Part shown: piece after piece, positions 2,506-57,238 of the stretch
Layout of the letters: the number at the start of each line of letters is the position of its first letter
Position numbering within the stretch: position 1 is the first letter of the stretch
Source: an uncultured virus (IMG/VR IMGVR_UViG_3300030329_002226)
Lineage: Duplodnaviria; Heunggongvirae; Uroviricota; Caudoviricetes
Direction: 5' to 3' (one strand)
DNA: 64,000 bases
Virus record (IMG/VR): IMGVR_UViG_3300030329_002226
Span: 1 to 64,000 of that record
Notes under the pieces: generated by a model
What the model was told of the DNA's origin: nothing
The model's database searches: none
The model's input: the letters and a program-made list of their open reading frames with translations, nothing else
Position numbers and translations under genes: made by a program

Positions 2506-5500
2506 TTAAAAATTTAATTTTGGTTTAAATTCTAATCCTTTAAAATCTAAATTAGGTCCAAAATCTAAAGGACCAGTTCTACCTCTTCTTCCATTTCCAT
2601 CTTCTATATTTAATCCTAAATTCCACGTACTATATCCTAAGAAGAATAATATTCTTTGCCACATTTCAAAGTCACTATCAAATGCATTTTTTAAATTTTC
2701 TGATTTAATATACAATCTGGCTACTGGAACTTGGGTAGCTGCTTCAAATCCAAATAGAAGTGCTTTTATTAGATTAGCATTTTTTAAAATTTTATCTGCT
2801 CCTTTTTCAAGCGCCAATATATCGTTAATTTCTTGTTGATTCCACGTGTATGTTCTATATGCTTGAACGGCTTTTCTTGATATTATAGCAGCTGGTACAA
2901 TTCCTTCGGATAAAGAAAGAACAAAATCACCTTCTTTATAAATAGCTTTATCATCTTTACCCATTCTGATTGTAGTAAGAATTATGTTTTTAATCCATGA
3001 TATAAATGCTCCATATATTCCTTGACCTTTTAATGTAGAATCAACCCAACCATTTGCGAATCTATTCCAGTTTTTATTATATTTTTCTGTTGGAAGTTCT
3101 TTTTCTTCTTCGTCCCACATTGTAGCCATTAAAGCGTTTTGAAGAAAAGCAAAAATAGCATATTGTAATCCTCCATAATAACTTATAACTCCAAGATTGT
3201 GTAATAAATTACCTCGTCCTTTAGCAATATCCATTGCTTTACTTTTCATTATTCTTCCATACTGTAAAGGAGTATTTTGAAATGCTAACATTAATCTACC
3301 CAGATTTCTGGCTTGATTAAAGGATATTTTTGATGGATCTCCAGATTGCTGAGTATCTTCTGCTAATACAAACCAATCGAACTCAGCCTTTTTAATAGCT
3401 TCTTCTTCAGTAAATCCATCTTTTTTATAAGTATTTATTCTATTTCTATAAAACGTAGTACCTCCAAAAGCAATTGCAAAACTATCTACTACTCTTGTAG
3501 GTCCAAATCCTATTTTTAATAAATAAGATAGAAGGGCATTCATATATTCCATCGAGTTAGAATATTCAAATTTAGTAGCTAAATCAGCAATTTCTTGTTC
3601 CTGTAAACTATTTAACATACCTTGTCTTCTATCTTTTAAATATGAAGAATTCCATAATGTATTAAAATCTTCCATAAATTGTGGTACATTAAGTATAGCT
3701 TTTCCAGCAGCTAAAGGATTATTATCAGTTGTATTTAAAAAATTCATAAAAGAAATAGTCTGTAAAGCTGCAGAACGCATGTTAAAAAACATAGTAACAC
3801 CAATAGTATTATTTAAATAATCCATAAAAGCATGTCCTATATCTTCAGGATTATTCCTTTTGCTAATCTGTTGTTGACCATATTTCATTCTTTCTAAATT
3901 ATCCTCTATAGAAACTCTCATTGCATTTCCGTAAATAGCTTGAATTTTATTTAAATTAGCATCTGTAAATATTAAATCAACATTTTGTATAAATTTAGCT
4001 AAATATTTAGTTCTTTCTGCTTCAACAAGATTATTTTTTATTTCAGAGGAAATAGTTCGACTTGTCCACCCTTCATAAGGTTCAATCCACCCATTTGGTT
4101 GTTTGGAAATTTGTGAAGCTTTATTAGCAAATTCTCTTAATTCTTTATCTTTGTTTACTATTGCTATTAATCTAAATTTTTGTGGCATACTTAACCCTGG
4201 AATACGTTTATTTCCTTTTGCCCAGCCTTTACTCCACATATAAACTCTAACTGCATCTCCATAAGTAAATGTTTTCATTCCTTTTATAGGGGATGTTAAT
4301 TTACCTTTCAGACCTGGAGAATTTTTCCATAATTGTGTCCAAGCTTCAACAGTTTTAACTTTTGCAGTTTTTAATTCAAAATTTCCTTTCATGTAAACAT
4401 CAAATACTTTCTCCCTAAACCATTTCTTTTGTTGTTCTCCTTTTTTTCCTTTACCAGTAGCCATCAACTCCATTAATCTCAAGATATCCATATCTTTTGC
4501 TGACAATAAACCTCCACTTCTCCACCATTGACCTTTGTCAGAACCTAATCCATATTTACCTAATACTTCAGCTTTTTCTATTTGTTTTTTAGGATCTATA
4601 TTACCAGTTTCAGCTAATATTTGATTTAACGCATCACTTAAGTTATTACTATATTCATCAAAATTATAATCTTCTTTTCTACTAAATTTAACATCTCCTT
4701 CGTTTAATATTTTGCTAGTTATTTTACCAGTTGAATTCTTGGCGTTTCTAAATGTAAAATTATTATATCCTTGAGACATTTTATTTATTAAATATAAAGC
4801 AATAGCTTTATCATTTAAATTACCTAAATTAGGAACATCAAATTTAATAGAATATTTAATTTCTTGATCTCTTGATCTTAAGTCTGAATTAATGAAAGCT
4901 TGTTGAGCAACATTTGCAATAGCTATTTGTTGATCTAGAGTTCTTCCTTTAAATAATGGAGATAAATTATTGTTAATACTAAATTTAACACTATCTGATT
5001 TTCCTGTAGCCATATTATCTATAACTTCAGCTATAATATTATCTTGTTTTAGTTCTTCATATAATATTGGATTTTTTTCTGCAATTTGATTTAAAAATCT
5101 TTCACTTCTTAAAGAATTTCTAGCTTCTTGTAAAATAAGCACATCTCCAAATAATTGCATTAAAGATGTTCTTCTATCAAAAAATCCTGTTGGTCCTATT
5201 TCTCCCATTGTTTTATCAGCTTTCTCACTTAATTCAACTGGATAAGATCTTAATTGTTTTATTTCACTTTCCGGATTTTCGTTATATTTATTTATAATTT
5301 CTTCTGCTTTGTTTTTACCAAAATAAGCTTGTAAGAATAAAGCCCTAGTTATTTTTTTATTTTTTGTTGGTCTACCTTGTTCATCAAATTCTCTTAATAT
5401 AGTAGGTATTTTTTTAGCAGCATAAGTAGATTCACCAGTAACAGGATCATAAGGATTGTTTATAACTTTATATATTAATTCCCAATTATTATACATAAAG

Positions 5501-8500
5501 AAATCTAAATCTCCTTGATTTTTGAAAGTCATATATCTAGCTAAAGGAAATATAAATGATTCAAATTTATTTTTAAAGTTTCTAAAATGTAATGTAGCAA
5601 TATTTGGAGCTCTTAAAATTTGCTCTTCTACCGCTTTTATTATCATTTTAACTGGATTCATAGGAAGTGTATAAGCTTCATATGTTTTTATTACCCTACC
5701 TGATCCTAAATCATAAGCTTGAAATCCTCTTAATTTCTCTAATTCTTTTACTTCTTCATTTGTTAAATTAGATTTATTTTCTAATTCTAAACCTCTTTCA
5801 ATATTTCTTTTTTGTCGTTCTAAATCATTAATAACATCTGGATCTTCTGCTGTTTTTAATCTTTGATTAACAGCTAATGTAGGATCATTTATACCTGATA
5901 TAGTTCGTCCTCCTAAAGGTACTACATCTATTATTACTTCTGTTCCATCTTCATTTACAAAACCAAATAATGGATCTCTTAAAAAACTAACTAATTTACT
6001 TTGATTTTGCTCCCATTCTTGTTTTTGTTCTTCAGCAGTATCCTCATCTATAGTACCCATTGTTCGTGGGTCATATTCTTTGGTGTATTTTTTAGTAGTT
6101 ATTCCTGGTCTTTTTAATGCTTGTTTTATTTTATTAACTAATTGAGAATTTATCCAACCATATAAAGATTTATTTTCTTTTATTATTTCACCTTTTTCTT
6201 CTCCAGTAGTAATTTTATAACCTTGTTCGTCTTGTGTTTTTAATCTTTCTTCAATCTCACTTTTACTTAATCCTTTTTTGTATAAGCTTTCTTTATATTT
6301 GTCTCTTTCTTTTAAAAATGTTTTATTAAAATTTCTAATATGTTTTAATAATTCTTCTTGAGTTCCAAATACTATTTCATCTACTAAAACACTAGGTAGA
6401 TTAGAATAAAGAGATTCTACTTTGTTCGTTATAATTGCTTCATAATCAAATATTATATCATAAGCTACGGTATCTATTCCTGTATTTGTAGTAAATAAAT
6501 CTGCATCATAATAATTATCTATTTTCTCTCCAAATGCTTTTGGATCATATTTTTGATCTGGTATTAATGAGTATTTAGTATCAAAACCTTGTGGCTCATC
6601 AGCACTACCAGGTTTTGTTTTTTTAGTTTTAGCTGTAGCTTTTCTTCTTTTATCTATCTCTTCTTTTAAAACAGTTATTTCTTTTCTAAGCTTTTCTTCT
6701 TTTCTTTTTTCTTTTTCTGCTAATTTTTCTGATGTAGTAGTTTCTAATTCTTGTTTTTCTTTTTCTAAAGCTTTTTTATCTACTTTAGCTCCTTTGGTAC
6801 CCATTTTCTTAAAAGCTCTATTCCATTTAAGTGTTCCACTTTTAATAGCTGCATTATAATCTCTAATCATATTAAATACAGCTCTACCACTATCAAATTC
6901 AAAGTCAGTAGCTCCAATAAATTGCATTGCTCTTCTCCATGTATTCTTTAGTCTTTGAGCTACATCTTCATCAAACTTAACTAAATTTTCTCCAATAGCT
7001 TCTGAATAAATTTCTAATGCTTCTTCCCATGTATTACCATATAAGTTATTTCTTCTTCTCTCATATTCAGCTTTATCAATAACTTTATTTTTAAGATCTA
7101 TTTTTAATTTTTCTTCTGCTTTTAAAAATCTATTATAATAACTTCTAAATCTATTTACAAAATCTTTAGGTAAAACACTAGTGTCTAAATCATCATCTAG
7201 TGCTAAATCCATTTTACTTATTTCATTAAATAAAGCTTTACCTAAAAGTACTTGAGTTTCATAATCTTCACCGATTGTTTTAACCCATAACGCATGTTTA
7301 AATTCATGCTGAGCAGTTTGTGTCAAACGTTTACCTGCTCTTCCGGGTTTAGCTGCTTGCCATTTAAATTCTAAAGCAAAGTTAGTATCACCTTGTTGAA
7401 ACATAGCTCCAGTTTTGTTTGAAATAAATCTTTTCTTTAAATATTCTTCAAACTTTTTATCGTCCATGTTTTTTGTTTTCCTATTTCTAGGAATAACTCC
7501 TTTAAGATATTCTAACGCTTGTTCCTCATTTTCAAATGCTTCAAAAACTGTATTACCTGCTATTCCAGCTTTCGCCGCAGCCAAAATAGCTGCTCTATCT
7601 TTTGATGTTATAGCATCATAATATGTATTGTTTATTCTATCTTTTAAAGCTTGAATTTGATTATCATAACCAGTAAAACCTTTAGGAGAATTTTTCTTGT
7701 CATTTTCTAAATCCCTTAATTCTTTTATATCTTCTAAAATATTTTTAGCATTTTTAGCATCCATACTTTTAGGAACATCATTAATAGTGTTTTTATATAA
7801 TGATACTTCTTGTAATAAATTATCTGCTTCTTCTTGAGTATATAAACCATCTTCTACTTGTTTAGCTAATAAAGATTTTAATTCTTTTTCATTAAAAGCC
7901 ATGTAAGCTAAAGCATTAAATCTATCTACATTATCTAATCCCATAAATTGTCTATATCTATTTCTACTAGAATTTATAGTCATACCTGCTCCTGGCATAG
8001 CCATACCAGCTAAAAATGATAATTTAGAGGTTTGAATAAAATCTTCTAAATTATAATCTTCTCTAACAATTTGTTGTCCTGCTCTAATATTAGTTGCAAC
8101 TCCGATAGATTCAGTTTCGCCCCATTGTTGTATATTTTCTTGAAATAATTCTTTCCAACCTTCACGCTGCATTAAATCAGCTCCTCTAACTAATCCTTTG
8201 AATCCTTCATATGTAGTAAATTTTTTACCTTGATCTTTCCAAAATTGATTCCAACCTTGCCATCCTTTTTTCTTATATATGGTCAAAGCTGTTTCTATAG
8301 TTTCTTTTGCTGGTTTTCCAAATATTAAATTTGTGGCTTTAGTTTGAGGACTTATAGGAGCTGTTAAAGCATACCATGCTCCAGTTTGAAAAGAAGCATT
8401 AGAAGCTAATTCTCTAGCCTCTTGATCATTTATTCCTGCTTCTCTTGCTGCTAATAATGTATCTTCATATCCTCTTACAAATCCTATTGTAGACTGAGCA

Positions 8501-13035: not shown

Positions 13036-13455
13036 TTATTTTGGTTTATTTTTATATATTATACTGTGTTTTTTTGTTCCAATAGTGTAATCAAGTAATT
13101 TTAATTTTTCTAAAACAGAATCATATGGAGTAGTACACCATACTGCTTCTGCTCCTAAATCCCAACAAGTATTAACTGCTTTGTCTATCAATAAAATTAA
13201 TATTGCTTCTCTATTTTTTTCTTTATAATTTGGATCTGCAACTAAATAATCACAATACCAAACTGGAGAATTAGTTTCGTATATAAATACCGCTGCAACT
13301 AATTTTCCATTAATTTCAGCAACTAATCCATTCTTACCATTATTAGGTAATAATTTTTTATCTATTTTTATCTTGTGGTAACTTTCCCACCACTCATCTA
13401 TAGTAGATGCATCTTTATTAGGCTCAATAGGCCTAATAGACAATTTGTCTTCCAT
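13036..13455 (-). CDS. GNAT-family acetyltransferase-like protein
   Basis: GLVAEINGKLVAAVF...LVADPNY...GAEAVW...LDY pattern; lies between tail and ejection genes. Confidence 0.6.
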   Translation of the reverse strand: MEDKLSIRPIEPNKDASTIDEWWESYHKIKIDKKLLPNNGKNGLVAEINGKLVAAVFIYETNSPVWYCDYLVADPNYKEKNREAILILLIDKAVNTCWDLGAEAVWCTTPYDSVLEKLKLLDYTIGTKKHSIIYKNKPK

Positions 13456-13464
13456 TTAATTTAA

Positions 13465-14763
13465 TTAATATGATGATTCAACGTATTCTGTAGATACGGC
13501 AAATAATTCATTAGTTTGAGTAGCTCCTGCTGTATTAGTAGCTGTAAATTTAGCTATTCCATAAAATCCTTTTATTCCAGAAATATCTTTTCCATAAATA
13601 ACTTCTCCTTGATTTACAGTGCTTGTATTTATTAAATTTGCAAAATATTTATTTTCTTTTGCTTTAAATTCATTTTTTAACAAAGCAGCTTCCATGTCTG
13701 CTAATGTTGTTGGTATTGTATAAACACCTACGGCATTAGCTGAATCAGTAGTTGTGGTAAAAGAATCTAATGCCCAATTACTATCACCTTCATAATTAAT
13801 AGTTTTAAATGTTTTACTTGTAGAAGGTTGTATATTAAAAATAGAAGTAACATCTGATGAATTATTAACTCCATAAAACGAAGCTCTATTAGAAGTTTCA
13901 GAATAATGTTGCCATAAATCTCCATCTAAATCAAAAGTATAAAATTTATTATCTAAACTAAACATTTGAGAAGGAACATAACTATAAAAACTTGTCCACC
14001 CTTTAGTTTGTTCATCAAAAGATAATGTTACAGCATTAGCTCCTGTAGAGTTGTTTAGAGTAGGTTGAATAGAAATAGTATAACATTTGTTATGTATATC
14101 CCATCCTCCTATTACTTTACCTGATACTCCTAAATTAGCAACATTTAATTGATCTCTAAAAAAATCATACATTCCGTAATTAGATATCTCAGTTAATCCA
14201 TCTTGAGATAAACGCATTACCGAACCTTTATTAGCATCACTAAAATATTTTCTATATCCATATACTGCAAAGGATTCAGGGTTTGTAGCTATTCCAAATT
14301 CTCCTGCATATGGTTGAATTTGACCTATAACTAAATTAGTACTAGTAGTTACTGGTTGACCTTCTGCTGAATAAATAGCATCTTTATCAATTAAGGCTCT
14401 ATTTACTTTATATTCTTGGAATATAACAAGATTTGTATCTTCAGCATATAGTTTTTGTATAGTTCCTTTTCCTGGATCAACTGTTCTAGTAATATCATTA
14501 GCAACTGAAAACTGATTAGTTTCATTAATATCAGTTCTTGAATTAAATATACCAGAATAAATAATAGTATTATTAAAAGCTTCTTGGTATTTATCATCAC
14601 TGCTTAAATAAGCTCTTGGTGCTAAACCAGAAAACTTAGCATTATAATCTCCTTTTATTCTTGATTCTTCTACAAACCAATCATATTGAGCATTTGCTGT
14701 ATTACTATTAATTTTTTTAAGTATATACGTGTTATAATACTTTACATTTAACGTTGTTGCCAT
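13465..14763 (-). CDS. Tail stabilisation/nozzle protein, C-terminal part (P22 gp10-like)
   Basis: GEFGIATNPESFA, YFSDANKGSVMRLSQDGLTEIS and GWTSFYSY motifs typical of crAss-like tail stabilisers. Confidence 0.7.
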   Translation of the reverse strand: MATTLNVKYYNTYILKKINSNTANAQYDWFVEESRIKGDYNAKFSGLAPRAYLSSDDKYQEAFNNTIIYSGIFNSRTDINETNQFSVANDITRTVDPGKGTIQKLYAEDTNLVIFQEYKVNRALIDKDAIYSAEGQPVTTSTNLVIGQIQPYAGEFGIATNPESFAVYGYRKYFSDANKGSVMRLSQDGLTEISNYGMYDFFRDQLNVANLGVSGKVIGGWDIHNKCYTISIQPTLNNSTGANAVTLSFDEQTKGWTSFYSYVPSQMFSLDNKFYTFDLDGDLWQHYSETSNRASFYGVNNSSDVTSIFNIQPSTSKTFKTINYEGDSNWALDSFTTTTDSANAVGVYTIPTTLADMEAALLKNEFKAKENKYFANLINTSTVNQGEVIYGKDISGIKGFYGIAKFTATNTAGATQTNELFAVSTEYVESSY

Positions 14764-14767
14764 ATGT

Positions 14768-14796
14768 TATAATCACTTGTTTATCTTAATGTTTAC
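14768..14796 (-). promoter_or_regulatory. Putative middle/late promoter, GTAAA-N10-AACAAGTGATTATA
   Basis: One of 5 copies with identical spacing; ends 4 nt before the ATG at 14763. Confidence 0.65.
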
Positions 14797-17700
14797 TAAG
14801 CTCCAGGCCAGTTACTTGTTTTATACCACCAATCAGTTACAAATGGTGGAGATCCTGTTGCAGGTTGAATTGGTTTAGGATCAATAGGAGCTGCAGGAGT
14901 TGCCGCATTAACATCATAATATATTTCAATACCTGCTCCTCCATCACATGTGTTTAAAGAAGTAAAGGCTATTTTATTATTTATCCATACACAATCTCCA
15001 AAATCATAAGCAGCACCACTAGAATCTGTACCTTTATCTCCTGGAACTACTCCATCAGTAATTTGTTGAGCAGTAGGATTAAAAGGTTGTAATGTACCAA
15101 TTAATTGCCATGCAGTACTAGTACCACTATAACTCATATTGACTGCTCCTCCTAAAGCAGCTGTACCATCACCTTTTGCTGGAGAATTAGAGTTTTGGGT
15201 ATTTTCTCCATTCCAAGTTACTTGAAAACTAGAAAGAGCAGTAACTGTAGTATCACCTGGTCTAAATATATTTCCAATCTTTACATATATGTTTATTGGT
15301 ACACCAGCATTATAATCCCAGTTTGCAATTTCTCCAACCCATGTAGGTAGAACTGGAGTAGAATATTGAGTCTCACATCCCGCATACATGTTTACAGCTG
15401 GAGCGTTCCATTCATTAGCAGTTGCCGCAGGATTATTATTATAAAAGTTAATTTTTACTCCTGTATATCTAGTCGCTTTAGGAGTCCATTGTACTACAAT
15501 AGTTTCACTGTCTCCAGTAGAATTTAAATCAGTTAGTTTCATTACTAATTCTTGAAGAGTAGCTTCATATTGAGAATTATAAGTAGATAAGTTTCTATTT
15601 ACTTTAACACCATAAAAATTAGTATTACTTCCTGTAGTACAAGTTGATTGATTTCTCGCTTCTTGTCCACTTATTAACATATAATAATCAATGTCAGTTG
15701 AAGTAGGTTCTCCAGTAGGATTTTGACCTGTTATATAATCTCCCCATACACCTAAAGTATTTTGATATCTAAATGACTCAATAGACCATTGTATATCTTG
15801 AGTTCTTTGACATGGATTAGCACTTCCATTGTATCCTTTTAATACTCCTGGTCCATTTCCTGGTCCTGGATTTAATCCTCCTGGAGGAGTATATCCTGTA
15901 TAATCTAATATTTCTTTATCAGCTATTTCTGGAGCTGGAGCTAAAGATAAATCACATATAGGTGTATCATTAATTAAAGTATGTGTGATAGTTTGATAAG
16001 AAACACTACCATCGTTTTGAGTAAATTTAATCTTTATCTGATATTTTTCTAAATATTCAAAGTTAATTAAACAAGCTCTTTCTGCTCCTACTTTTAACTG
16101 TAAATAAAAACCTCCTCCTCCAGCGCTTACAATATTAAATAATGATATACTAGGTTGAACTGGTTGATCATTAGAATCATGAATAAGAGTTTCGACGATA
16201 GAAGCTGTACTGTATTCATCATTACCTTGAGGAGTTACAGGCCAAAACGTAGTTGTAATTTGAGCATTACCTGCATCACCTTCATTGAACAACCAACTAA
16301 AAGCAGATATTCCTGTTATTTGAGTTCCAGTAGATGTTATCTCGTAATTTAAATCAGATATTAAACCACTTGTAGAGGTTTCATAAAATAAATCTAGTTG
16401 AGAAACTGTAGGTGCAGTTTCATATACAGATAACCTCATGTATGCTGGATAATCTGGTCTTCCTGCTACAGGAACTGTATTATAAGATGTTTGTATTAAT
16501 CCAATACTTTTTTGAGTATTAACTTTTGCAACAAAAGGTTTTGATTCAACATCATAAATAGCATTGTTATTTATTTCATTATCACTTCCTCCTGGTCCGT
16601 CGCTATAAGTTATATCAGGGAATATATCTTTTATTCCTCCAATAAGCTCTACACCATCTGCGTTTATACTAGGAGAATATTGAGCATTTCCTGGAGTAGT
16701 TGCTTCATTTGTTACTCTTCCCCAACACATTAAATCACTATTAAATTGTTTATCCTGGTTACTTACATCTGTTAATTGTCTAGGAACTTTATTTATATTA
16801 TCATGTGTTAATACTATAAAAGCAGTACTACCTACTTCAGTTGTATTATCACCAATAGGATAACCATCTATAATTCCAGGTAAATATACATTATAAAATT
16901 CTTGTTGTTGTTGTTTTACTACTACTCTATAAGAATAAAACCCCATTTCATTAATAGTATATACATAGTTAGTATAAGCTTGAGATATAACAGGTTCTGG
17001 ATATATAGTACTACTTTGCGTTAAGAACATATAACTATCTGCTATTTCTTCATAAGTATAAATATTAAGAATATTGTTTGTACTAGGATCTGTTTGTCTT
17101 TCTATTTTAACATAATCTTGATATTTTCCTCTTAATTCTTTTCCTACTGCAAATAAATCTTTAGATGTTATTAAATCAGCAGCAGCATCTCCAGTGGTTG
17201 GAATATATGATAATGTATAATAATATTCACCACTCGTAGTATCTGTATTATATTTTAATTCTGCTTTTATTTGTTGATTTAAAGGCAATGCATTGTTTAA
17301 AGTAACTTTTAATTTTCCATTAGTTGGATCTGTTGGTGTAGAAGATGCGGCAGCTGTATATGTCGCTGGAGCAATAACAACCCATCCTGATCCATCATTA
17401 GAATATAAATTAAAAGTATTAGCAGCTGCTTGAGTATCTGAGTAATCTATACTTCCAAAAAAATATTTTAAATCTGCAGTTAAACTACCTGTGAATAAAG
17501 TAATAATTACGCTTGTACTACCTCCAATTACACTTGTAGAAATAGTAAATGTATCTCCTGCTACATAACCTGTTCCTGCTTCTTCTAAAGTTACACTAGT
17601 TACAGCATTACCAGTAAGAGTTATCTCAAAACTTGCTCCTGATCCCGCTGAAGAACTTGTAGTCCAACCCGAAGTAGTACCTGGAGTTCCTGAATAATCT

Positions 17701-19883
17701 CCATTATTTCCATCAGAAGTATTAGTAGTAACATTTGCAACTGCTAAAGTAGTTATTCTTGATCCTGTAGTATCTAAAATTTGAGTTGAATAATTTTTAA
17801 AATAAGAATATGGTGCTCCACCAGGAACAGCTACTGTGTATTGTTCTGGAACAGCATATAATCCTGCGTCATTTCCATTTACATTCACAGCGCTATCGAA
17901 TCTTACAGCTAGTTGCTCACCTTGCCATCCAGACAATGTACTAGCGTTTTCTACTGGTCTATAATTAGAAAAATAATTTGATCCTTCTGTAGGTTCTCCT
18001 CCTGCTACTAATACGTTATCTTTTGAAGAAAGTATAACATCTGTTTGTCTTCCCCATTTATCTGCTAAAATTATTCCTACTTGGTAATTTCTATTTTCTT
18101 TTACAGAGTGTTGAGGATATTCTTCATATTCTTGATTGTTTTTGTCTTTCTTTTCTACAGCATAATCTAGTCCTAAAGGAGCATTATAACCTTGTATAAA
18201 ATTTCCATACATTACTCTATTACCTGCGATTTCTTGAGATAAAGCTCTTACTGGAACTTTATCATAAACTCTAGTGGTTTCATCAGTAGGTAGAGTTTTA
18301 TAAGGAATAGTAGATTGATAAGTATATTGGTAAACATTAGTGTTATTAAGATTAGATATAAATGTAGTATCTACAGGTACACTTTGTAATACTTTGTAAG
18401 CTAAAGAATCAGATTCTTTATATATAATATCTATTTCTTGTATTTTATAATCATTTATAATATCTAAAGAAGGGAGTTCAATGTTTAATATAACATTATT
18501 AATATTATTTTGCATAAACTCTACTATTGTAGATGTCATTGTGTCATCTTCATCTTCATTAACAAACTTTCCTTCTTGTTGAGGAACAAAACATTCTTGT
18601 GTGAATGGAGCAATAAGAGAGTATTCACCGTCGTTATATTTAAATCTATAACTAAATCTTATAAATTTATCTTTCATTAATTCTGGATCACCTTGCCATC
18701 CTTTAAAACTAGCATCTTTTATTACTCTAACTGCTCTTCCTTGAAGATTAGAAGTTGATGCTGGAAGAGTTGGAGCAGCTCCACTATCTAAAATTTGAAA
18801 ATATTTATCTACTCCTTTAATCCAAAATTCTGCGTGTGTATTAATATTTTGAAAATCTGTTACACTACTAGTAGCTACTCTTTCTCCAGAAGGTAAAGCA
18901 TTAAAACCTAAACTATTGTTTGTTATAAGAGATGTAGAAGTCCAATATGCTGTTGATTTAATATCTGCTACTGTTCTTCCTCCAGATGTAGTATAAGTTT
19001 CAAGAGCAGTATAATTAGCTTCAGTAGCTAAAGTATATCCATAAGGAGCTAAATTTCTGGAATCTTCTACTGCCCATTTATTATATAGTTTTCCATATAT
19101 AACTCCATTATCATAATCATTACTATAATAACACCACGCTCCTACTTGTCTAGTATTTGCATCTACCCAATCCGCCCATGTAGTTGCGTGTTCTATTAGA
19201 TCTCCATTTCTATATCTAGTTACATCTAAGTTAACTGTTGCCCAATCCAATGCATCTATTAGTATAGTAGGAATATCAGCTCCATTACTCATTGTGCTTG
19301 GAAGAGTAGAACTAACACTTCTTAAATCTACTAATCTTGGAGCGACATATGGAGAATATTTACAAACAGTTATATCTGATTCATCAGTATAATAAGTTTT
19401 TCCAGAACCACTAGGACTGGCTGTTTGAACATTAATAACTCTTGGTTGATTCCTATTATCTGTCCAAAATAAAAGATTTTCTAATAAATTTACCCCATGT
19501 ATAGGAGCTTGAGTAGAAAAGTTGAGAAAATGACCTTCTACTAAAACATCTGGGGTATTTGTTCCTGAGCTAGGTGACCATCTACATATTTGACAAGAGT
19601 TTGTAGTAGCGATATCTTGACTTAATGTTCCTGAAAAATCTGTTAAAAAATAGTATATAAATCCTCCGGCTTGATCTACATAAGTTCCTATAGTTTCTAA
19701 AGAACCAGTACTTGAAAATACAGCTTCATTACCTAAAACAGCTTCTAAAGCCCCTACGTCTTGATTCTCTGATCTAGAAACTGCAATATTATTAGCGTCT
19801 CTGTATTCATTTTTTGGAATTAGTCTATCATCTAAGTCTTTATTCATTTTAGACTTAATGAAACTATTTTTATTTTCAGCCAT
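14796..19883 (-). CDS. Tail stabilisation/nozzle protein, N-terminal part, with inserted Fib_succ_major-like and other adhesin-like domains
   Basis: MNKDLDDRLIPKNEYRDANNI start, LLFWTDNRNQPRVIN and FSYRFKYNDGEYS motifs; insert at ~18714-19270. Confidence 0.7.
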   Translation of the reverse strand: MAENKNSFIKSKMNKDLDDRLIPKNEYRDANNIAVSRSENQDVGALEAVLGNEAVFSSTGSLETIGTYVDQAGGFIYYFLTDFSGTLSQDIATTNSCQICRWSPSSGTNTPDVLVEGHFLNFSTQAPIHGVNLLENLLFWTDNRNQPRVINVQTASPSGSGKTYYTDESDITVCKYSPYVAPRLVDLRSVSSTLPSTMSNGADIPTILIDALDWATVNLDVTRYRNGDLIEHATTWADWVDANTRQVGAWCYYSNDYDNGVIYGKLYNKWAVEDSRNLAPYGYTLATEANYTALETYTTSGGRTVADIKSTAYWTSTSLITNNSLGFNALPSGERVATSSVTDFQNINTHAEFWIKGVDKYFQILDSGAAPTLPASTSNLQGRAVRVIKDASFKGWQGDPELMKDKFIRFSYRFKYNDGEYSLIAPFTQECFVPQQEGKFVNEDEDDTMTSTIVEFMQNNINNVILNIELPSLDIINDYKIQEIDIIYKESDSLAYKVLQSVPVDTTFISNLNNTNVYQYTYQSTIPYKTLPTDETTRVYDKVPVRALSQEIAGNRVMYGNFIQGYNAPLGLDYAVEKKDKNNQEYEEYPQHSVKENRNYQVGIILADKWGRQTDVILSSKDNVLVAGGEPTEGSNYFSNYRPVENASTLSGWQGEQLAVRFDSAVNVNGNDAGLYAVPEQYTVAVPGGAPYSYFKNYSTQILDTTGSRITTLAVANVTTNTSDGNNGDYSGTPGTTSGWTTSSSAGSGASFEITLTGNAVTSVTLEEAGTGYVAGDTFTISTSVIGGSTSVIITLFTGSLTADLKYFFGSIDYSDTQAAANTFNLYSNDGSGWVVIAPATYTAAASSTPTDPTNGKLKVTLNNALPLNQQIKAELKYNTDTTSGEYYYTLSYIPTTGDAAADLITSKDLFAVGKELRGKYQDYVKIERQTDPSTNNILNIYTYEEIADSYMFLTQSSTIYPEPVISQAYTNYVYTINEMGFYSYRVVVKQQQQEFYNVYLPGIIDGYPIGDNTTEVGSTAFIVLTHDNINKVPRQLTDVSNQDKQFNSDLMCWGRVTNEATTPGNAQYSPSINADGVELIGGIKDIFPDITYSDGPGGSDNEINNNAIYDVESKPFVAKVNTQKSIGLIQTSYNTVPVAGRPDYPAYMRLSVYETAPTVSQLDLFYETSTSGLISDLNYEITSTGTQITGISAFSWLFNEGDAGNAQITTTFWPVTPQGNDEYSTASIVETLIHDSNDQPVQPSISLFNIVSAGGGGFYLQLKVGAERACLINFEYLEKYQIKIKFTQNDGSVSYQTITHTLINDTPICDLSLAPAPEIADKEILDYTGYTPPGGLNPGPGNGPGVLKGYNGSANPCQRTQDIQWSIESFRYQNTLGVWGDYITGQNPTGEPTSTDIDYYMLISGQEARNQSTCTTGSNTNFYGVKVNRNLSTYNSQYEATLQELVMKLTDLNSTGDSETIVVQWTPKATRYTGVKINFYNNNPAATANEWNAPAVNMYAGCETQYSTPVLPTWVGEIANWDYNAGVPINIYVKIGNIFRPGDTTVTALSSFQVTWNGENTQNSNSPAKGDGTAALGGAVNMSYSGTSTAWQLIGTLQPFNPTAQQITDGVVPGDKGTDSSGAAYDFGDCVWINNKIAFTSLNTCDGGAGIEIYYDVNAATPAAPIDPKPIQPATGSPPFVTDWWYKTSNWPGA

Positions 19884-28095: not shown

Positions 28096-30309
28096 TTAAT
28101 CTATTATTTTTGAAATATATCCTTTGTTATTATATTTTCTAAAACCTAATGGTTTTGGATCTAATTGTCTTTTAAATATAGGTTTATAAAGATTTTTATT
28201 ACAACCCATTATAGCTAAACCTGAGCTAATAGAAGCATCATGTTTTGTTCTATTATTTATATCAAATCTAGCCCAATCTTCTAATGTTTTTTGAAGATAC
28301 ATATCTCCATATTTAGTTCCCAAGTTACCAACGTAGGTTTCAATATAAGATTCTATCGCAGCTGCATGAGCTTGTTTTACATCTTCACTAGAGTTTGGTA
28401 TACCTCCAATCTCTCTTTCAGTAACTGATAATTTATTATAAAGTTTATCAGGTCTATTCATACTAAACCCTCTATATCCTCTTCTTTTAAAATGATATAA
28501 AAGTCTAGGTTTATTATTTTCTACTAATATTGGCATTCCATAAAATACACATGCCATTAATACATCTTCAAAGAATATTTCTGCTGTTTGAGGTCTAGCT
28601 ATGTATTCTAAAAAGAAATGATTAGGTGGAATATCTTCCATGCTAAATTTCGTAAGTCCGTGTAACGAACCATTTGATCCTCTAATATCCACTGTACCTG
28701 AGATATCATATGGGTCACAACCAAAACATCCACAGTGTTCGTTACCAGGATACCTTATTCCATCTTTCATTATTACATTATTTTGTAAATTATATGGAGG
28801 TGTCCATGATATTTTAAATCTTCCTGAAGGATTTGGTACAAATAATACTTTTGTATCCTTAACTCCGTGTTCCCATTGAAAAGAACCTTTAGTTACTAAC
28901 GCGTGATTTTGAGAATCTTCGTTATAATCTATTTGTTCATATATTTTAACTAGATTAAATAGTGAAGCTTTTGATTCATCTCTAAAAGCGTGTTGCGTTG
29001 TTCGTGGAAATTGTCTATAAAATTCATTTAAACCATTTTGATCTTGTTTAAGACCATCTACTTCATTTTGCCAATATTCAATAACACCTAATTCAATTTC
29101 TTCGTTTCTCGGACCTTTGACAGGTTTCGACGGTGTTTCGAAGACAGGTATTCCATAAGAATCAATGTATCCTTCGTAATTCCATTCCATAGGAATGAAC
29201 AAAGAATAGAGTCCTGAGCGAGTCTGTCCGTTGGCGTTTCTTTTTGTGACATCTGAATCATCGTATAGTTTTTTAAAGTTATCTCCACCTTTATCTAAAG
29301 CATTAGAAGTAGAACCCATCATACACTTACCTATAATTCTACTACCTAACCTTAATGTGGTTTTTGTTACTCTCCAATTATTTAGAATATTGTTTGGTTT
29401 TTCCCATTTGCCACTTTCATCATGTACTAATAGTTTTAATTTTTCACCATCATAACTATTATCTCCTGTATTTTTCCAGTCAATAGTTGTATCTAATCCT
29501 TGTAAATCTTCACTTTCTGTTCCTAACTCTATCTTTCTTCTAGTAAATTTAGAAGCTGGGACTCTATATGCTAATTCTGTTTTAGGTCGATCCATACCAT
29601 CTTGGATGGGCTTAAAAAAGAATGGATAATTAACTGATATTGGTACAACTTTATCAGTAAACATTTTTTTAGCATCTGGTCCAGTTTTAGATAATATTCC
29701 ATATCGGGAATCACTAGATATTGTTGCTAAATTAACAACCTCTCCTGATGCCATAAAAGAAAATCCAGAACGTCTATTCTTAAGATAACACATTCCATAA
29801 CATCTTTTATCAGCTTTACATGCTTCCCAAAACACAAAGAATAATCTATTAGCTTCTCTAAAATCTGGAGCTCCTACATCAATTTTACTCCATTGTAAAT
29901 ACATATAATGTGTACCAGTTAAATAAGTAGGAATATCTTTATTATAATACCAAAATCCTTCTTCCCGTCTTTTAAATTCTTGATCAATATATTCAAACCA
30001 TTTTTCTTTAAAATCTTGTGGATATTGTTTCCAATCAAAAACTGTTTTAATTCTACTTAATTCCTTAGGATATTCAGCTTTTTCAAATTTGTTAGTTTTA
30101 AATCTATGTGGTTTATTAGATTGTTTAGGAAGTGCTATTTTTAAATTTTGAATTTCATATATATCACCAATTTGACCTGTTTTAGATATAACAATAACAT
30201 CATGTTCTTTATTGTATCCATATTCCCATTTTTTATTTTTATTATTTCTTTTTATTATATGGGGCTTTATATGGTCTGTTAATATCTTATATAAAGTTTG
30301 TACGTACAT
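28096..30309 (-). CDS. terL: Terminase large subunit
   Basis: Walker A variant LKNRRSGFS, Walker B LLVHDESGKW, nuclease GCDPYD. Confidence 0.85.
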   Translation of the reverse strand: MYVQTLYKILTDHIKPHIIKRNNKNKKWEYGYNKEHDVIVISKTGQIGDIYEIQNLKIALPKQSNKPHRFKTNKFEKAEYPKELSRIKTVFDWKQYPQDFKEKWFEYIDQEFKRREEGFWYYNKDIPTYLTGTHYMYLQWSKIDVGAPDFREANRLFFVFWEACKADKRCYGMCYLKNRRSGFSFMASGEVVNLATISSDSRYGILSKTGPDAKKMFTDKVVPISVNYPFFFKPIQDGMDRPKTELAYRVPASKFTRRKIELGTESEDLQGLDTTIDWKNTGDNSYDGEKLKLLVHDESGKWEKPNNILNNWRVTKTTLRLGSRIIGKCMMGSTSNALDKGGDNFKKLYDDSDVTKRNANGQTRSGLYSLFIPMEWNYEGYIDSYGIPVFETPSKPVKGPRNEEIELGVIEYWQNEVDGLKQDQNGLNEFYRQFPRTTQHAFRDESKASLFNLVKIYEQIDYNEDSQNHALVTKGSFQWEHGVKDTKVLFVPNPSGRFKISWTPPYNLQNNVIMKDGIRYPGNEHCGCFGCDPYDISGTVDIRGSNGSLHGLTKFSMEDIPPNHFFLEYIARPQTAEIFFEDVLMACVFYGMPILVENNKPRLLYHFKRRGYRGFSMNRPDKLYNKLSVTEREIGGIPNSSEDVKQAHAAAIESYIETYVGNLGTKYGDMYLQKTLEDWARFDINNRTKHDASISSGLAIMGCNKNLYKPIFKRQLDPKPLGFRKYNNKGYISKIID

Positions 30310-30590
30310 TATTTAGACCTTCCTTCTGCAAAACCTTTAAAAGGTTTTTCTTTTTTAACTTCATCTTTTTTAGGTTTGTCTTCTAACATATTTTTTTCTT
30401 CTTCAATTCTATTTAAAATCTCAAAAGCATCAAAAATAGCTAATTTTTTAGTAGCAGCTGCATTCTTTAGTCTATCTGCTGAGATATCATCATCTGAATC
30501 AACAATAGGTTCTTTAGCTACTTTAATTAGCTCATCTACTGCTACTTGCCCAGCTTGGATTATATTCTTCTTGGTTTCCTTTATTTTCAT
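30309..30590 (-). CDS. Probable terminase small subunit
   Basis: Small helical protein whose stop overlaps the terL start. Confidence 0.45.
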   Translation of the reverse strand: MKIKETKKNIIQAGQVAVDELIKVAKEPIVDSDDDISADRLKNAAATKKLAIFDAFEILNRIEEEKNMLEDKPKKDEVKKEKPFKGFAEGRSK

Positions 30591-31140
30591 ATTTAATTAC
30601 AATATCATTTGATTTCATACAATATAAACGTTCATTATCTATAATAAATTCCCATTCACCGTAAGGAGTGTAACCTACGAGATCTCCAGGATATATTTCT
30701 TTATCATCTAATGAACTATTTCCATATTTTAATATCCCTATTAAACTAACTTCTTTATCGTTGTTTAGAGATTCTTTATTTTCAATAGGTTTTATAAAAC
30801 ATCTATCATTAAAAGAATTCCATGTATCATTTCTTTTATATAAATATACTTGATCGGGTTGACAAAAATATAAATTATCTTTAAACCATGATCTACTTTT
30901 TTTCTGAACACCTTTAGTGTTATAAAAAGTTCTAAACACGTTTTGATGAATAATTAATATATCATCTACTTGTATTCCTGTATAATATGCCAAAGGAATT
31001 GCTTTTACTTTAGCATATCTATTTACAAATTTAAAATTTTCTATACTTGAATTTAAAATTAGTTCTTGGTTCTCTACTTGAATCTTATTACTATATGTTT
31101 CACCTAGGGGTTCTACGATAAAATCATATAAACTTCTCAT
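30532..31140 (-). CDS. GroES-like (tandem co-chaperonin-fold) protein
   Basis: Two GroES-like halves (IQVDDILII; IYPGDLVGY...EFIIDNERLYCMKSNDI). Confidence 0.5.
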   Translation of the reverse strand: MRSLYDFIVEPLGETYSNKIQVENQELILNSSIENFKFVNRYAKVKAIPLAYYTGIQVDDILIIHQNVFRTFYNTKGVQKKSRSWFKDNLYFCQPDQVYLYKRNDTWNSFNDRCFIKPIENKESLNNDKEVSLIGILKYGNSSLDDKEIYPGDLVGYTPYGEWEFIIDNERLYCMKSNDIVIKYENKGNQEEYNPSWASSSR

Positions 31141-36740: not shown

Positions 36741-37000
36741 ACAACAACGACTACATCTTGAGATTTTATAACATGATATGTTTTATCTTCTACTTCTATT
36801 TTATGACCAGCATGTCTATCGAAATAAATAGTGTCATTAGACTTTAAACCATTTACTTCATCACCTACTGATAAAATAGTAGCTTCAGTATATCTTATAT
36901 CTTCTTTTTGTTTTTCTCCTAATAATAAACCACCTTGTGTTTTAGTAGTTCCTTCTTTAGTTTTTTCTATTATCAAATTTCTACCTATTGCTTTCATCAA
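36737..37000 (-). CDS. groES: Co-chaperonin GroES
   Basis: KTQGGLLL mobile loop, ATILSVGDEV, adjacent to groEL. Confidence 0.85.
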   Translation of the reverse strand: MMKAIGRNLIIEKTKEGTTKTQGGLLLGEKQKEDIRYTEATILSVGDEVNGLKSNDTIYFDRHAGHKIEVEDKTYHVIKSQDVVVVV

Positions 37001-38534
37001 CTCTAATATTATTAATTACACAATCTGTAGATAAAATGGTTTTAGCAACTGAAGCCGCATTTTTTAGTGCACTTTTAGTTACTAATAAAGGATCAATAAT
37101 ACCATTTTTAACCATATCTACTTGTTTTCCGCTTGTAACATCTATTCCTATCCCTTCTTTTTTAGGTAAAATAGGATCAATACCCGCGTTTTCTAGTATT
37201 GTTTTATATGGTGAGATTAATGCTTTTGCTAGAATTTTTTCTCCTTCATTTTCTTCTTTTAAATTCATTGCAGCATTTAATAAAGCTATTCCACCTCCTG
37301 GTACTATACCTTCTTTTATTGCAGCTTTAGTTGCACAAATAGCATCTTCAGCTCTATCTAATTTTTCTTTTAATTCTACTTCAGAATTAGCACCGATTTT
37401 TACTACAGCAATTTTAGCACATAATCTTGCTAATCTTTTTTCTAAAGATATTATTTTATCCGGAATTTTACATGTTATTAATTCTTTCTTAATATCTTCT
37501 ATAATAGCTATAGTTTCTGTTTTTGTGTCTCCTATTTGAATAATAGTTTCAGTATTATTAGTTATACTTTTTAAACAGCTTCCTAAATAATCTACACTTA
37601 AAAGATCCATATCATCTCCTAAGTTTTCATTTATTATAGTAGCTCCTGTTAATAAAGATATATCATCAAATATTTCTTTTCTATTAACTCCTAATACTGG
37701 AGCTTCTATTACATTTATTTTAATATTACCTTTTGTTTTGTTCATAGCTAAAGCTGCTAAAACATCTTGACTTAAATCTCCTATTATTAATAAAGGTTTT
37801 CTTTTTTTAATAACATGTTCTAAAATACTTTGTATTTGTCTTATACTATTTATTTCAGAATCTAATAATAAAACTAAAGGATTTTCTAGTTCTGCTGTTT
37901 TCTTTTCTTTATTAGTAATAAAATGAGGACTAGTTAATCCTTTTGGATATTGAGCTCCATCAATTATTTCTACTAATGTTTCACCAGATAAAGACATTTC
38001 CATCATTACTACTCCAGTAGTATCTACTGATCTAAAAGCATTAGCTATTAAACTACCTAATTTAGAATCATTATTAGTAGATATAGTAGCTACATTATCT
38101 AGCATTTTATCTTTTACAGGAATAGATATTTTATTTAAATATTTTATAACTTTATCTACTGCACTGTCAATTCCTTCTTTTATATCTCTTATATTTTGCT
38201 TATCAATAACCTTATAAGCTTCAGTTAAAATAGAATGAGATAAAACTGTAGCGGTGGTTGTTCCATCACCTGCTTCTTCTACAGTTTTTTTAGCAGCGTG
38301 TTTTAATAAAGTACAACCCATATTTTCTACTGGATGTCTTAATATTATATTTTCTGCTACAGTAACACCATCTTTGGTTATAGTTGGATTACCACTAGAA
38401 TCTTCTAAAATCACACATTTACCGCTAGCTCCTAATGTAGAGCTAACGGCTTTAGTGAGTTTTTCAATTCCTTCAAATACTTTATCTCTAGCTTCGTTTC
38501 CAAAGTTAAGATTTTTTACTATCATATTTGACAT
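36981..38534 (-). CDS. groEL: Chaperonin GroEL (phage-encoded)
   Basis: ITKDGVTVA, AGDGTTTATVL, GIVPGGG and GIIDP motifs. Confidence 0.95.
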   Translation of the reverse strand: MSNMIVKNLNFGNEARDKVFEGIEKLTKAVSSTLGASGKCVILEDSSGNPTITKDGVTVAENIILRHPVENMGCTLLKHAAKKTVEEAGDGTTTATVLSHSILTEAYKVIDKQNIRDIKEGIDSAVDKVIKYLNKISIPVKDKMLDNVATISTNNDSKLGSLIANAFRSVDTTGVVMMEMSLSGETLVEIIDGAQYPKGLTSPHFITNKEKKTAELENPLVLLLDSEINSIRQIQSILEHVIKKRKPLLIIGDLSQDVLAALAMNKTKGNIKINVIEAPVLGVNRKEIFDDISLLTGATIINENLGDDMDLLSVDYLGSCLKSITNNTETIIQIGDTKTETIAIIEDIKKELITCKIPDKIISLEKRLARLCAKIAVVKIGANSEVELKEKLDRAEDAICATKAAIKEGIVPGGGIALLNAAMNLKEENEGEKILAKALISPYKTILENAGIDPILPKKEGIGIDVTSGKQVDMVKNGIIDPLLVTKSALKNAASVAKTILSTDCVINNIRVDESNR

Positions 38535-50287: not shown

Positions 50288-50320
50288 CACGGACTTATAT
50301 TCTATTCTATTCGATACTAT
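50288..50320 (+). promoter_or_regulatory. Putative early promoter 1, CACGGACTTA-N15-GATACTAT
   Basis: 7 copies with exact 15-nt spacer. Confidence 0.7.
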
Positions 50321-50344: not shown

Positions 50345-50377
50345 CACGGACTTATCTAATATTAATATAGATAATAT
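50345..50377 (+). promoter_or_regulatory. Putative early promoter 2, CACGGACTTA-N15-GATAATAT
   Basis: Exact consensus. Confidence 0.75.
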
Positions 50378-50741: not shown

Positions 50742-50774
50742 CACGGACTTATACTAATTTATTATAGATAATAT
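50742..50774 (+). promoter_or_regulatory. Putative early promoter 3
   Basis: CACGGACTTA-N15-GATAATAT. Confidence 0.75.
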
Positions 50775-51464: not shown

Positions 51465-51497
51465 CACGGACTTATATTAATTAATATTAGATAATAT
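51465..51497 (+). promoter_or_regulatory. Putative early promoter 4
   Basis: CACGGACTTA-N15-GATAATAT. Confidence 0.75.
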
Positions 51498-51523: not shown

Positions 51524-51772
51524 ATGAAGACTAAAATTAAATTAAATCAACTAGCAACAAAGAGATTTGTTATTAGAAAATCATTAATTGGTAAAAACAC
51601 AGTAATAACTTTTACTAATAAGAAAAATGAGAAATGTACTTATAATCATGACATAGTATATAATCAACTAAAAACTAAGTTTGATAATATGATGTGTTTT
51701 AATAAGTATGGTAATTATACTAACACTAATAACCTTCCAAGGTTTGTTAGAGAATTAGATAAAATAGTATAA
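51524..51772 (+). CDS. Early protein, paralog B
   Basis: Paralog of 50418-50681. Confidence 0.75.
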   Translation: MKTKIKLNQLATKRFVIRKSLIGKNTVITFTNKKNEKCTYNHDIVYNQLKTKFDNMMCFNKYGNYTNTNNLPRFVRELDKIV

Positions 51773-51849: not shown

Positions 51850-51882
51850 CACGGACTTATATATAATTTCTATGGATAATAT
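51850..51882 (+). promoter_or_regulatory. Putative early promoter 5
   Basis: CACGGACTTA-N15-GATAATAT. Confidence 0.75.
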
Positions 51883-52633: not shown

Positions 52634-52666
52634 CACGGACTTATAAACAAAAACTTTAGATAATAT
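52634..52666 (+). promoter_or_regulatory. Putative early promoter 6
   Basis: Consensus; ends 4 nt before the ATG at 52671. Confidence 0.75.
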
Positions 52667-53809: not shown

Positions 53810-53940
53810 ATAAATGTAAGTTTTGTAATAGTACAGCTTTGGTATATCACTATTATATTTGTGATTCTAAATGTGAAGAGTGTGGAGATTGGCAAGAAGG
53901 AGAAGAGTTTAACTTACACGGACTTAATAACAAACACTAA
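53806..53940 (+). CDS. 44-aa zinc-ribbon peptide
   Basis: Manual translation MNKCKFC...KCEECGDWQ...; ATGA overlap with the previous gene. Confidence 0.5.
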   Translation: MNKCKFCNSTALVYHYYICDSKCEECGDWQEGEEFNLHGLNNKH

Positions 53941-53949
53941 CGATAATAT
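53917..53949 (+). promoter_or_regulatory. Putative early promoter 7
   Basis: Consensus; ends 4 nt before the ATG at 53954. Confidence 0.75.
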
Positions 53950-56580: not shown

Positions 56581-56623
56581 TGACAATAGGGATTATAATT
56601 ATAAAAATAACAGGCTAATGTCA
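56581..56623. promoter_or_regulatory. 43-bp palindromic operator-like site overlapping the HTH gene start codon
   Basis: TGACAATAGGG-N21-GGCTAATGTCA. Confidence 0.6.
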
Positions 56624-57238
56624 CACGAAAGAAACATGAAATGGTTAAATGATAGACAAATTATTTATAGAAGAGATCCTATTAATGATAAACCTACTAT
56701 TGAGACAGATACATATAGATATTATGAGCAAGGCACACATGAATGTTATACACTATTTAACACCAGTGCTAAAATACCTACTTATAAATCATTAAAATGG
56801 CATTTTCTTGTATTATACTATTTAAATAGTGACATTTTGTCACCTGAAGAAGAGATAATAACTTTATTTAAATTTATAGCTAAAAAAGAGAATGGATTTG
56901 TTACATTTTTTATTAGTAAACAAAAACTAGAAGAAATAATACAAAACGTACTGACAATAGGTGGTGAACCACCAATAAATAGAAAAAGAAAAATAATATT
57001 TAAAGACTTTACAGGATTATCTACTAAAGAAAAACTATCAATTGTAGGAAAATTAATAGGTAGATCAAGCATAGATAAAGAAATGATATATGAAACTATG
57101 TTAGATTTAAATGACTGGGGTAAGAAAATTACTATTAGTCGTATTGCTGGTTTACTTAATTGTTCCGTGAGAACAATACATAGAAATATGGGAGATGAAT
57201 TAAAACGAGAAAAAGTAAGATTAAATGAAGAAATATAA
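56618..57238 (+). CDS. DNA-binding protein with C-terminal HTH (regulator or replication initiator)
   Basis: KITISRIAGLLNCSVRTIHRNM HTH. Confidence 0.7.
   Translation: MSHERNMKWLNDRQIIYRRDPINDKPTIETDTYRYYEQGTHECYTLFNTSAKIPTYKSLKWHFLVLYYLNSDILSPEEEIITLFKFIAKKENGFVTFFISKQKLEEIIQNVLTIGGEPPINRKRKIIFKDFTGLSTKEKLSIVGKLIGRSSIDKEMIYETMLDLNDWGKKITISRIAGLLNCSVRTIHRNMGDELKREKVRLNEEI

Follow-up and report, generated by a model that had tools for sequence, protein, structure and literature searches.

Phages are known to have their early genes transcribed either by the holoenzyme of the host or by a polymerase that they inject. The described systems closest to the locus studied here include the virion RNA polymerases of crAss-like phi14:2 (gp66) and of N4, which in the available portions of PMC10172136 and PMC13434306 are giant cargo proteins that are encoded last in a podovirus virion module, have a zincin linked to them and serve early transcription. 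Our locus resembles them in these respects and in its crAss muzzle-like tail genes. A second group consists of phage sigma factors such as phiEco32 gp36, 7-11 gp47 and T4 gp55, which are synthesised as free proteins in the infected cell and act on middle or late genes, the early genes being left to host sigma-70. A third, the phage polyvalent proteins with a zincin-like MPTase (PMC5512222), comprises large multidomain proteins built around an HExxH hub, for which the part of that paper available to us proposes self-processing and a jump-start of transcription.

The stretch analysed here, called the window, covers positions 1 to 64,000 of record IMGVR_UViG_3300030329_002226, a genome of 67,276 bp with a completeness rating of 100%. 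An earlier note had seen, just after a KYSL linker in its largest protein, a segment resembling region 2 of sigma-70/ECF factors, and had proposed that the phage injects this domain to redirect host core RNA polymerase to seven early promoters. In the present study we find that the segment has the predicted fold of sigma-factor region 2 and that the early promoter changes in step with the giant protein among related phages; because of these two observations, the phage likely injects a promoter-recognition factor of its own.

Genome context and the giant protein

Terminase, portal, capsid and crAss muzzle-like tail genes follow one another in the leftward direction of transcription from about 50 kb, and the tail genes are succeeded by a GNAT-like gene, by two ORFs (224 and 607 aa) and, at the end, by the giant ORF (Table 1). 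The GNAT-like gene (13036-13455, minus strand) heads the cargo block, as it does in Elemovirus-like phages; the arrangement of a GroEL gene (36984-38534, minus strand) and a GroES-like gene before the terminase (30535-31140, minus strand) is likewise as in those phages. The tail protein of family phrog_14478 (crAss muzzle-like) is divided into two ORFs (13465-14763 and 14796-19883, minus strand), the larger of which contains a Fib_succ_major domain. In the 3.3 kb past the window are ORFs that by eye resemble ribonucleotide reductase and a peptidase.

The nearest annotated terminases belong to phages of Flavobacterium, Cellulophaga, Tenacibaculum and Maribacter and to one uncultured record, and one homologue of the sigma domain lies on a phage-like contig within a Flavobacteriaceae MAG; from these we infer a host among the Bacteroidota. 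The phage-like contig L185, which carries a giant of the insertion type (see below) and was binned in an uncultured Flavobacteriaceae MAG, is either a host hint or a binning artefact.

Table 1. Features of the window discussed in the text (aa, residues of the giant protein)
Feature	Position	Strand	Basis and reading
Giant multidomain protein, 2,633 aa	2506..10407	-	ORF; final gene of virion module; putative ejected cargo
Linker KFSI (aa 1808)	4975..4986	-	downstream boundary of sigma module
Acidic linker and companion domain (aa ~1436-1807)	4987..6102	-	same linker-bounded unit; candidate upstream-element reader
Sigma-70-family region-2 domain (aa ~1289-1435)	6103..6543	-	fold search, homologue HMM matches, ESM features
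47-aa clade-specific insertion between sigma-2 helices 2 and 3	6184..6324	-	present in the window's clade, absent from others
Linker KYSL (aa 1278)	6565..6576	-	bounds sigma module upstream; candidate site of cleavage
Zincin-type HExxH motif (HEFKH, aa 1034-1038)	7294..7308	-	motif; predicted zincin
Putative early promoter 1 (CACGGACTTA-N15-GATACTA)	50288..50319	+	motif search
Putative early promoter 2 (CACGGACTTA-N15-GATAATA)	50345..50376	+	motif search
First early gene, 87 aa	50418..50681	+	paralogue 51524-51772; FastTree 0.83 and 0.94
Putative early promoter 3	50742..50773	+	motif search
Putative early promoter 4	51465..51496	+	motif search
Putative early promoter 5	51850..51881	+	motif search
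Putative early promoter 6	52634..52665	+	motif search
Putative early promoter 7	53917..53948	+	motif search
Separately encoded phage sigma, 253 aa	57225..57986	+	phrog_351 E 8e-14; candidate middle/late sigma

In Elemovirus, phi38:1 and phi13:2 a giant gene annotated 'structural protein' occupies the equivalent position, and because of this gene order alone the window giant is called likely packaged and ejected with the DNA. The giants of these three phages share no detectable sequence with it, a tblastn search of the giant and its module against 50,697 annotated phages gave no real match, and HMMs run over the sequence taken from Elemovirus, phi38:1, phi13:2 and MW202828 detected no sigma domain. 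Existing virion proteomics is therefore inapplicable, the four cultured or annotated relatives checked having no detectable copy of the domain.

All 14 giants examined have a single HExxH motif upstream of the sigma domain, and thus join a zincin motif to unrelated domains in one large protein, in the manner of MPTase-type polyvalent proteins. Motifs of the form K[FY]S[LIR] occur in the window giant at aa 1278, 1808, 1851 and 1907 and are aligned in homologues; the 530-aa unit between the first two aligns end to end in 16 insertion-type rows. A scan of viral contigs found 62 loci with the domain, in ORFs of ~2,100-3,850 aa where whole and with an upstream HExxH in every one. The order zincin, linker, sigma-2, companion domain, linker recurs in many related phages. 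Release of the sigma module by the predicted zincin at the K[FY]S linkers is plausible, since zincins of this kind were proposed as polyprotein processors by Iyer et al. 2017 (PMC5512222), yet the N4 virion polymerase, in the available text of the same paper, is packaged uncut despite its zincin.

A sigma region-2 domain within the giant protein

Searched alone against Pfam, PHROGs and PDB sequences, the window segment matched no sigma model. It is blank in Pfam because of its 47-aa insertion, which many homologues lack: the spacing between helices 2 and 3 is 14 residues in insertion-free homologues and 57-61 in the insertion type, and in the AlphaFold model the inserted residues form two helices and a hairpin. 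Among 26 insertion-free homologues, 14 matched Pfam Sigma70_r2 (PF04542) at E<=1 (best E 1.1e-6) and 20 matched TIGR02937 (best E 1.4e-7); for the first insertion-free member the bit score was below the profile cut-off. A profile of the insertion-free sequences found four PDB sequences at E<=10, three of them sigma factors, with weak values (E 0.33-0.99). ESM features of the segment ranked Sigma70_r2 clusters first (0.91), at a recognition value under the level the tool calls reliable.

The AlphaFold model of aa 1276-1812 (537 aa) has a mean pLDDT of 74, with mostly 76-93 in the sigma-2 domain. In a VIA fold search of 48,161 chains its best 16 matches were sigma-factor entries by title, with Z values of 6.4-7.8 (below 8, a range the tool calls middling), and all 16 align to model residues ~14-160; SigB, for example, scored Z 7.7 (86 aa superposed at an rmsd of 2.9 A) and SigC scored Z 7.6. 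Foldseek returned nothing at E<=0.001 for the 537-aa model. As to structure entries, we take 7d7d_F to be T4 gp55, and 7lq4_A is presumably WhiG. Because independent tests (ESM features, HMMs of insertion-free homologues, fold search) agree, the likeness goes beyond chance, and since the Z values are middling it is the agreement of HMM, profile and fold that carries the call. From sequence comparison and model together, aa ~1289-1435 are thus assigned as a sigma-70-family region-2 domain, and the likeness reported earlier is borne out. The extent then given, 6105-6460, is in frame (aa ~1317-1434), but the domain is slightly larger and the pattern quoted for it had skipped the insertion.

The D, F, L, W and N columns of region 2 can be matched to those of SigR and SigH, and across 40 homologues they vary little or not at all, although the invariance of INSQLxNK and the conservation of W..N were partly selected by the search pattern itself. 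These columns include the acidic, core-binding motif of region 2.2 and the aromatic positions of region 2.3. The window departs from the pattern in region 2.2, where it has E in the D column and G in the E column (EIVFGT against DLVQET of SigR). The sigma-2 motifs are maintained across giants that are elsewhere only 25-45% identical.

A subfamily (P0046, P0050, P0051, P0064, P0065 and L186:10001-16987) has a distinct region 2.3-2.4, for example YINKNLPLRA for WINSQLxNK; no viral locus was found for P0065. In P0046, P0050 and P0051 the companion domain fused to the divergent sigma-2 has ~46-55% identity to the G021 one, an arrangement that looks, from the sequences, like a natural sigma-2 swap. 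Region 2.3-2.4 is also divergent in G046 (L188-L191), a record with two virion modules, a replication block ~100% identical to that of G022 and no early region, which by its sequence looks chimeric.

The companion domain

The region that follows sigma-2 is homologous between the insertion and the insertion-free clades (HHalign 97%) and very divergent among phages that have ACAAAC sites in common. The companion domain of one homologue was modelled at pLDDT 87; a fold search with this model reached a best Z of 3.9, with no sigma factor among the best 50 rows, and Foldseek gave nothing at E<=0.001. The window model gave weak winged-helix rows in its fold search, with DpnI at Z 5.7. A sigma-4-like helix-turn-helix had been read by eye in insertion-free companion domains, and the fold search gave it no support; a complete sigma factor is therefore not claimed. 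The structure prediction that had been suggested as a check against Sigma70_r2 and r4 thus returned the sigma-2 fold but no match to region 4.

An array of putative early promoters

The sequence CACGGACTTA occurs in seven copies on the plus strand between 50288 and 53917, in a region of small genes that precedes the free sigma gene. In six of them GATAATAT follows after a gap of exactly 15 nt, and in the first GATACTAT takes its place; written as hexamers the promoter is CGGACT-N17-GATAAT. Seven such sites stand against 0.2 expected per shuffle. Flavobacterium sigma-A promoters, in the part of PMC9723704 available, vary around TAnnTTTG, and the earlier description of the seven promoters as unlike the TTTG / TAnnTTTG consensus stands, as none of them matches TAnnTTTG. 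Nine TAnnTTTG octamers lie on the plus strand at 49.5-58 kb (a raw count), one of them adjoining promoter 1.

The exact promoter pattern was found in 37 stretches on 20 viral contigs. The sigma domain is present on 10 of the 20 and on seven of the eight near-complete ones, the single exception (G004) ending just short of the giant gene; in all 10 it is of the insertion type. One metatranscriptome (n=1) gave scattered contigs.

An eighth CACGGACTTA lies at 28662 (minus strand) within the terminase gene, where the downstream element is poor, and G020 has one minus-strand copy as well. The 10-mer GTGTATAGCA / TGCTATACAC is present in 6-13 copies per genome in G001, G002, G004, G009, G014, G021, G022 and G039, often directly upstream of early promoters, and is possibly, to judge from its sequence, a terminator stem or a recombination repeat.

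Promoter type and gene trees

Fifteen relatives were read whole, eight of them reached via the protein and not via the promoter. G043, the only insertion-type genome of the protein-reached set, has six sites of the CGGACT type. Six of the seven insertion-free genomes have 3-7 sites of the type ACAAAC[TA], with GATAATA and the spacing unchanged, and in the seventh, G025, three sites of yet another type (CACCNRTTAA-N15-GATAATA) lie 9.3-9.7 kb upstream of the free sigma. The -10-like GATAATA is thus constant across 15 related phages, and the upstream element comes in types.

The eight CGGACT genomes form a clade in the tree of the giant's C-terminal part (100/100) and in that of the insertion-stripped sigma-2 core (14 rows, support 0.996); the promoter-type labels were set within the script that drew the first trees, and G014, identical to G001, was dropped later, leaving 15 rows. 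For markers picked after quick trees had been viewed, AU tests rejected this clade for free sigma (p 0.029), portal (p 0.0016), primase-helicase (p 0.032, G039 fragment dropped) and terminase (p 0.039, G021 fragment dropped), and did not reject it for the major capsid protein (p 0.054). The clade was recovered by four of 27 shared markers, namely the giant (1.0), two early-gene paralogues (0.83, 0.94) and, unsupported, a tail protein (0.03). The giant and the early region, 40 kb apart, therefore share a history that most other genes lack. By these trees, promoter type follows the giant protein and not free sigma, portal, terminase or primase, a covariation that amounts to one split among 15 genomes and not to multiple independent changes.

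Such a single split would also arise by shared descent of two modules if the domain were a sigma-derived helical module with a structural part in ejection or DNA pulling and no role at promoters. Middling Z values and the uncut packaging of the N4 polymerase in spite of its zincin (in the available text of PMC5512222) agree with a purely structural role, which we consider very improbable, since the sigma-2 motifs are kept across otherwise divergent giants and no polymerase could be recognised in the complete genome.

The first early gene is duplicated, with a promoter ahead of each copy, and its tree follows promoter type, so that this small gene is a possible alternative partner of the promoter type as far as sequence goes. 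It enters into another reading, which we judge unlikely, in which the injected sigma-2 would act as a decoy or appropriator that blocks the core's sigma site and shuts off the host, and in which host sigma, perhaps with a small early protein, reads the early promoters. The first transcript of an early gene cannot be started by that gene's own product, however, and the early sites do not match TAnnTTTG. That region 4 was not detected is in keeping with such a decoy, as is the behaviour of the first early gene (50418/51524), and precedents exist in the available parts of two reports, where host polymerase reads those middle promoters of phi14:2 that have -35/-10 boxes (bioRxiv 10.1101/2020.03.07.982082) and phiEco32-like phages leave their early genes to host sigma-70 (PMC8948821). 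Under a decoy role there would be no reason, though, why a giant 40 kb away should track promoter type while the intervening genes do not. We accordingly prefer to read the domain as a promoter-recognition factor.

The free sigma factor and the search for a virion polymerase

The free sigma gives weak matches to Sigma70_r2 and r4, and 14 of the 15 near-complete relatives carry its gene. In G015 and G043 a promoter of the CGGACT class lies directly after it. These observations, with the TAnnTTTG sites within the early region, would suit a reading in which free sigma itself reads the early promoters by positive feedback, primed from weak host promoters, the virion domain having some other job. 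Both the rejection of the promoter grouping by the free sigma tree (AU p 0.029) and the identities among free sigmas make this improbable: that of G000 is 73-74% identical to those of G024, G026 and G029, whose upstream element differs, and only 52-57% identical to those of G001, G002, G004 and G009, whose upstream element is the same. Reading of the early promoters by the virion domain is again preferred.

The start of the free sigma gene is overlapped by that of a 206-aa protein (56618-57238, plus strand) with a weak C-terminal HTH match, conserved in 15 of 15 relatives. A candidate motif ACA[AT]GT[AG]ATTAT has four sites in the window against 0.8 expected, a weak excess, all near gene starts (58012, plus strand; 38921, 32656 and 14780, minus strand). 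Genomes of both promoter types have it again behind the free sigma gene, but in several genomes it is missing or no commoner than expected by chance; possibly it is a middle/late motif read by free sigma. Of the earlier suggestion that the phage's own sigma drives a second promoter class, the separate sigma gene holds up (phrog_351, Table 1), but the class consists of this weak motif.

No D[FYLIVH]DGD or DID motif was found in the giants of 16 genomes, except in a D/L-rich tail in G015, and the ORFs of more than 300 aa in the window genome hold a single DxDGD-type motif, in a tail protein. A DFDxD-type catalytic motif, by which a crAss-like virion RNA polymerase would be recognised, is absent from the window giant. 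As judged from these motifs there is no recognisable virion RNA polymerase in the complete genome, which confirms the earlier observation on the window.

Discussion

We consider it fairly probable that an ejected sigma-like module equips host core RNA polymerase for the seven early promoters. The giant protein would be packaged and then ejected along with the DNA, as gene order suggests, and the zincin may cut at the K[FY]S linkers to free the ~530-aa unit (aa 1278-1808), a step that is optional for the model. Sigma-2 would dock on the host core polymerase and open the constant GATAATA element, and the companion domain or the insertion would recognise the upstream element, which is variable and lies 17 bp from GATAAT. 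The early transcript would yield free sigma, and this in turn would drive middle and late genes. Early RNA is predicted to be rifampicin-sensitive and chloramphenicol-resistant. The proposal that a virion sigma-like domain redirects host core polymerase thus gains from the sigma-2 fold and from a promoter type that follows the giant, but no region 4 was found to complete it.

In a broader form, to which we would give about an even chance, a widespread group of uncultured Bacteroidota podoviruses has a third start route, with an injected sigma carried in a self-cleaving polyprotein, a new fold replacing region 4, and a sigma module and promoter array that, though 40 kb apart, pass from lineage to lineage as a matched pair. 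The first phage genes would in that case be transcribed by a reprogrammed host polymerase without new protein synthesis. An injected sigma, if true, would be a third solution for phage early transcription and would explain how promoters unlike the host TAnnTTTG class could work from the first minute. The natural variants of promoter and module would offer ready-made orthogonal sigma-promoter pairs, and the companion domain is a candidate new DNA-reading fold. In the literature searched, mostly outside subscription papers, a virion-carried bacterial sigma was not found among the matches listed.

Set against known systems, the window domain shares with sigma-70 region 2 (PF04542; SigR 1h3l, SigC 2o7g, SigB 8x6g, sigma-32 8hkc) a three-helix bundle and the pattern D..(E)T...F...L..W...N, and differs in being embedded at aa 1289-1435 of 2,633 aa, in its 47-aa insertion and in being followed by a companion domain for which no resemblance to region 4 was detected. 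With the phage sigmas phiEco32 gp36, 7-11 gp47 and T4 gp55 it would have in common the redirection of host core to phage promoters; gp36, in the available text of PMC8948821, is also without region 4. Whereas those sigmas are free, here a second sigma domain lies within a particle-type protein and tracks early promoters. In contrast to the virion polymerases, the window giant has no DFDxD-type motif, and its early transcription is predicted to be sensitive to rifampicin; the window also has a strong early promoter consensus, whereas the early genes of phi14:2 have none. The word 'sigma' is absent from the main text of PMC5512222 on polyvalent proteins, and neither the domain nor its promoter link is described in that main text. 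The window giant thus fits the fold family of sigma region 2 and the layout of the polyvalent proteins, and is not a virion polymerase.
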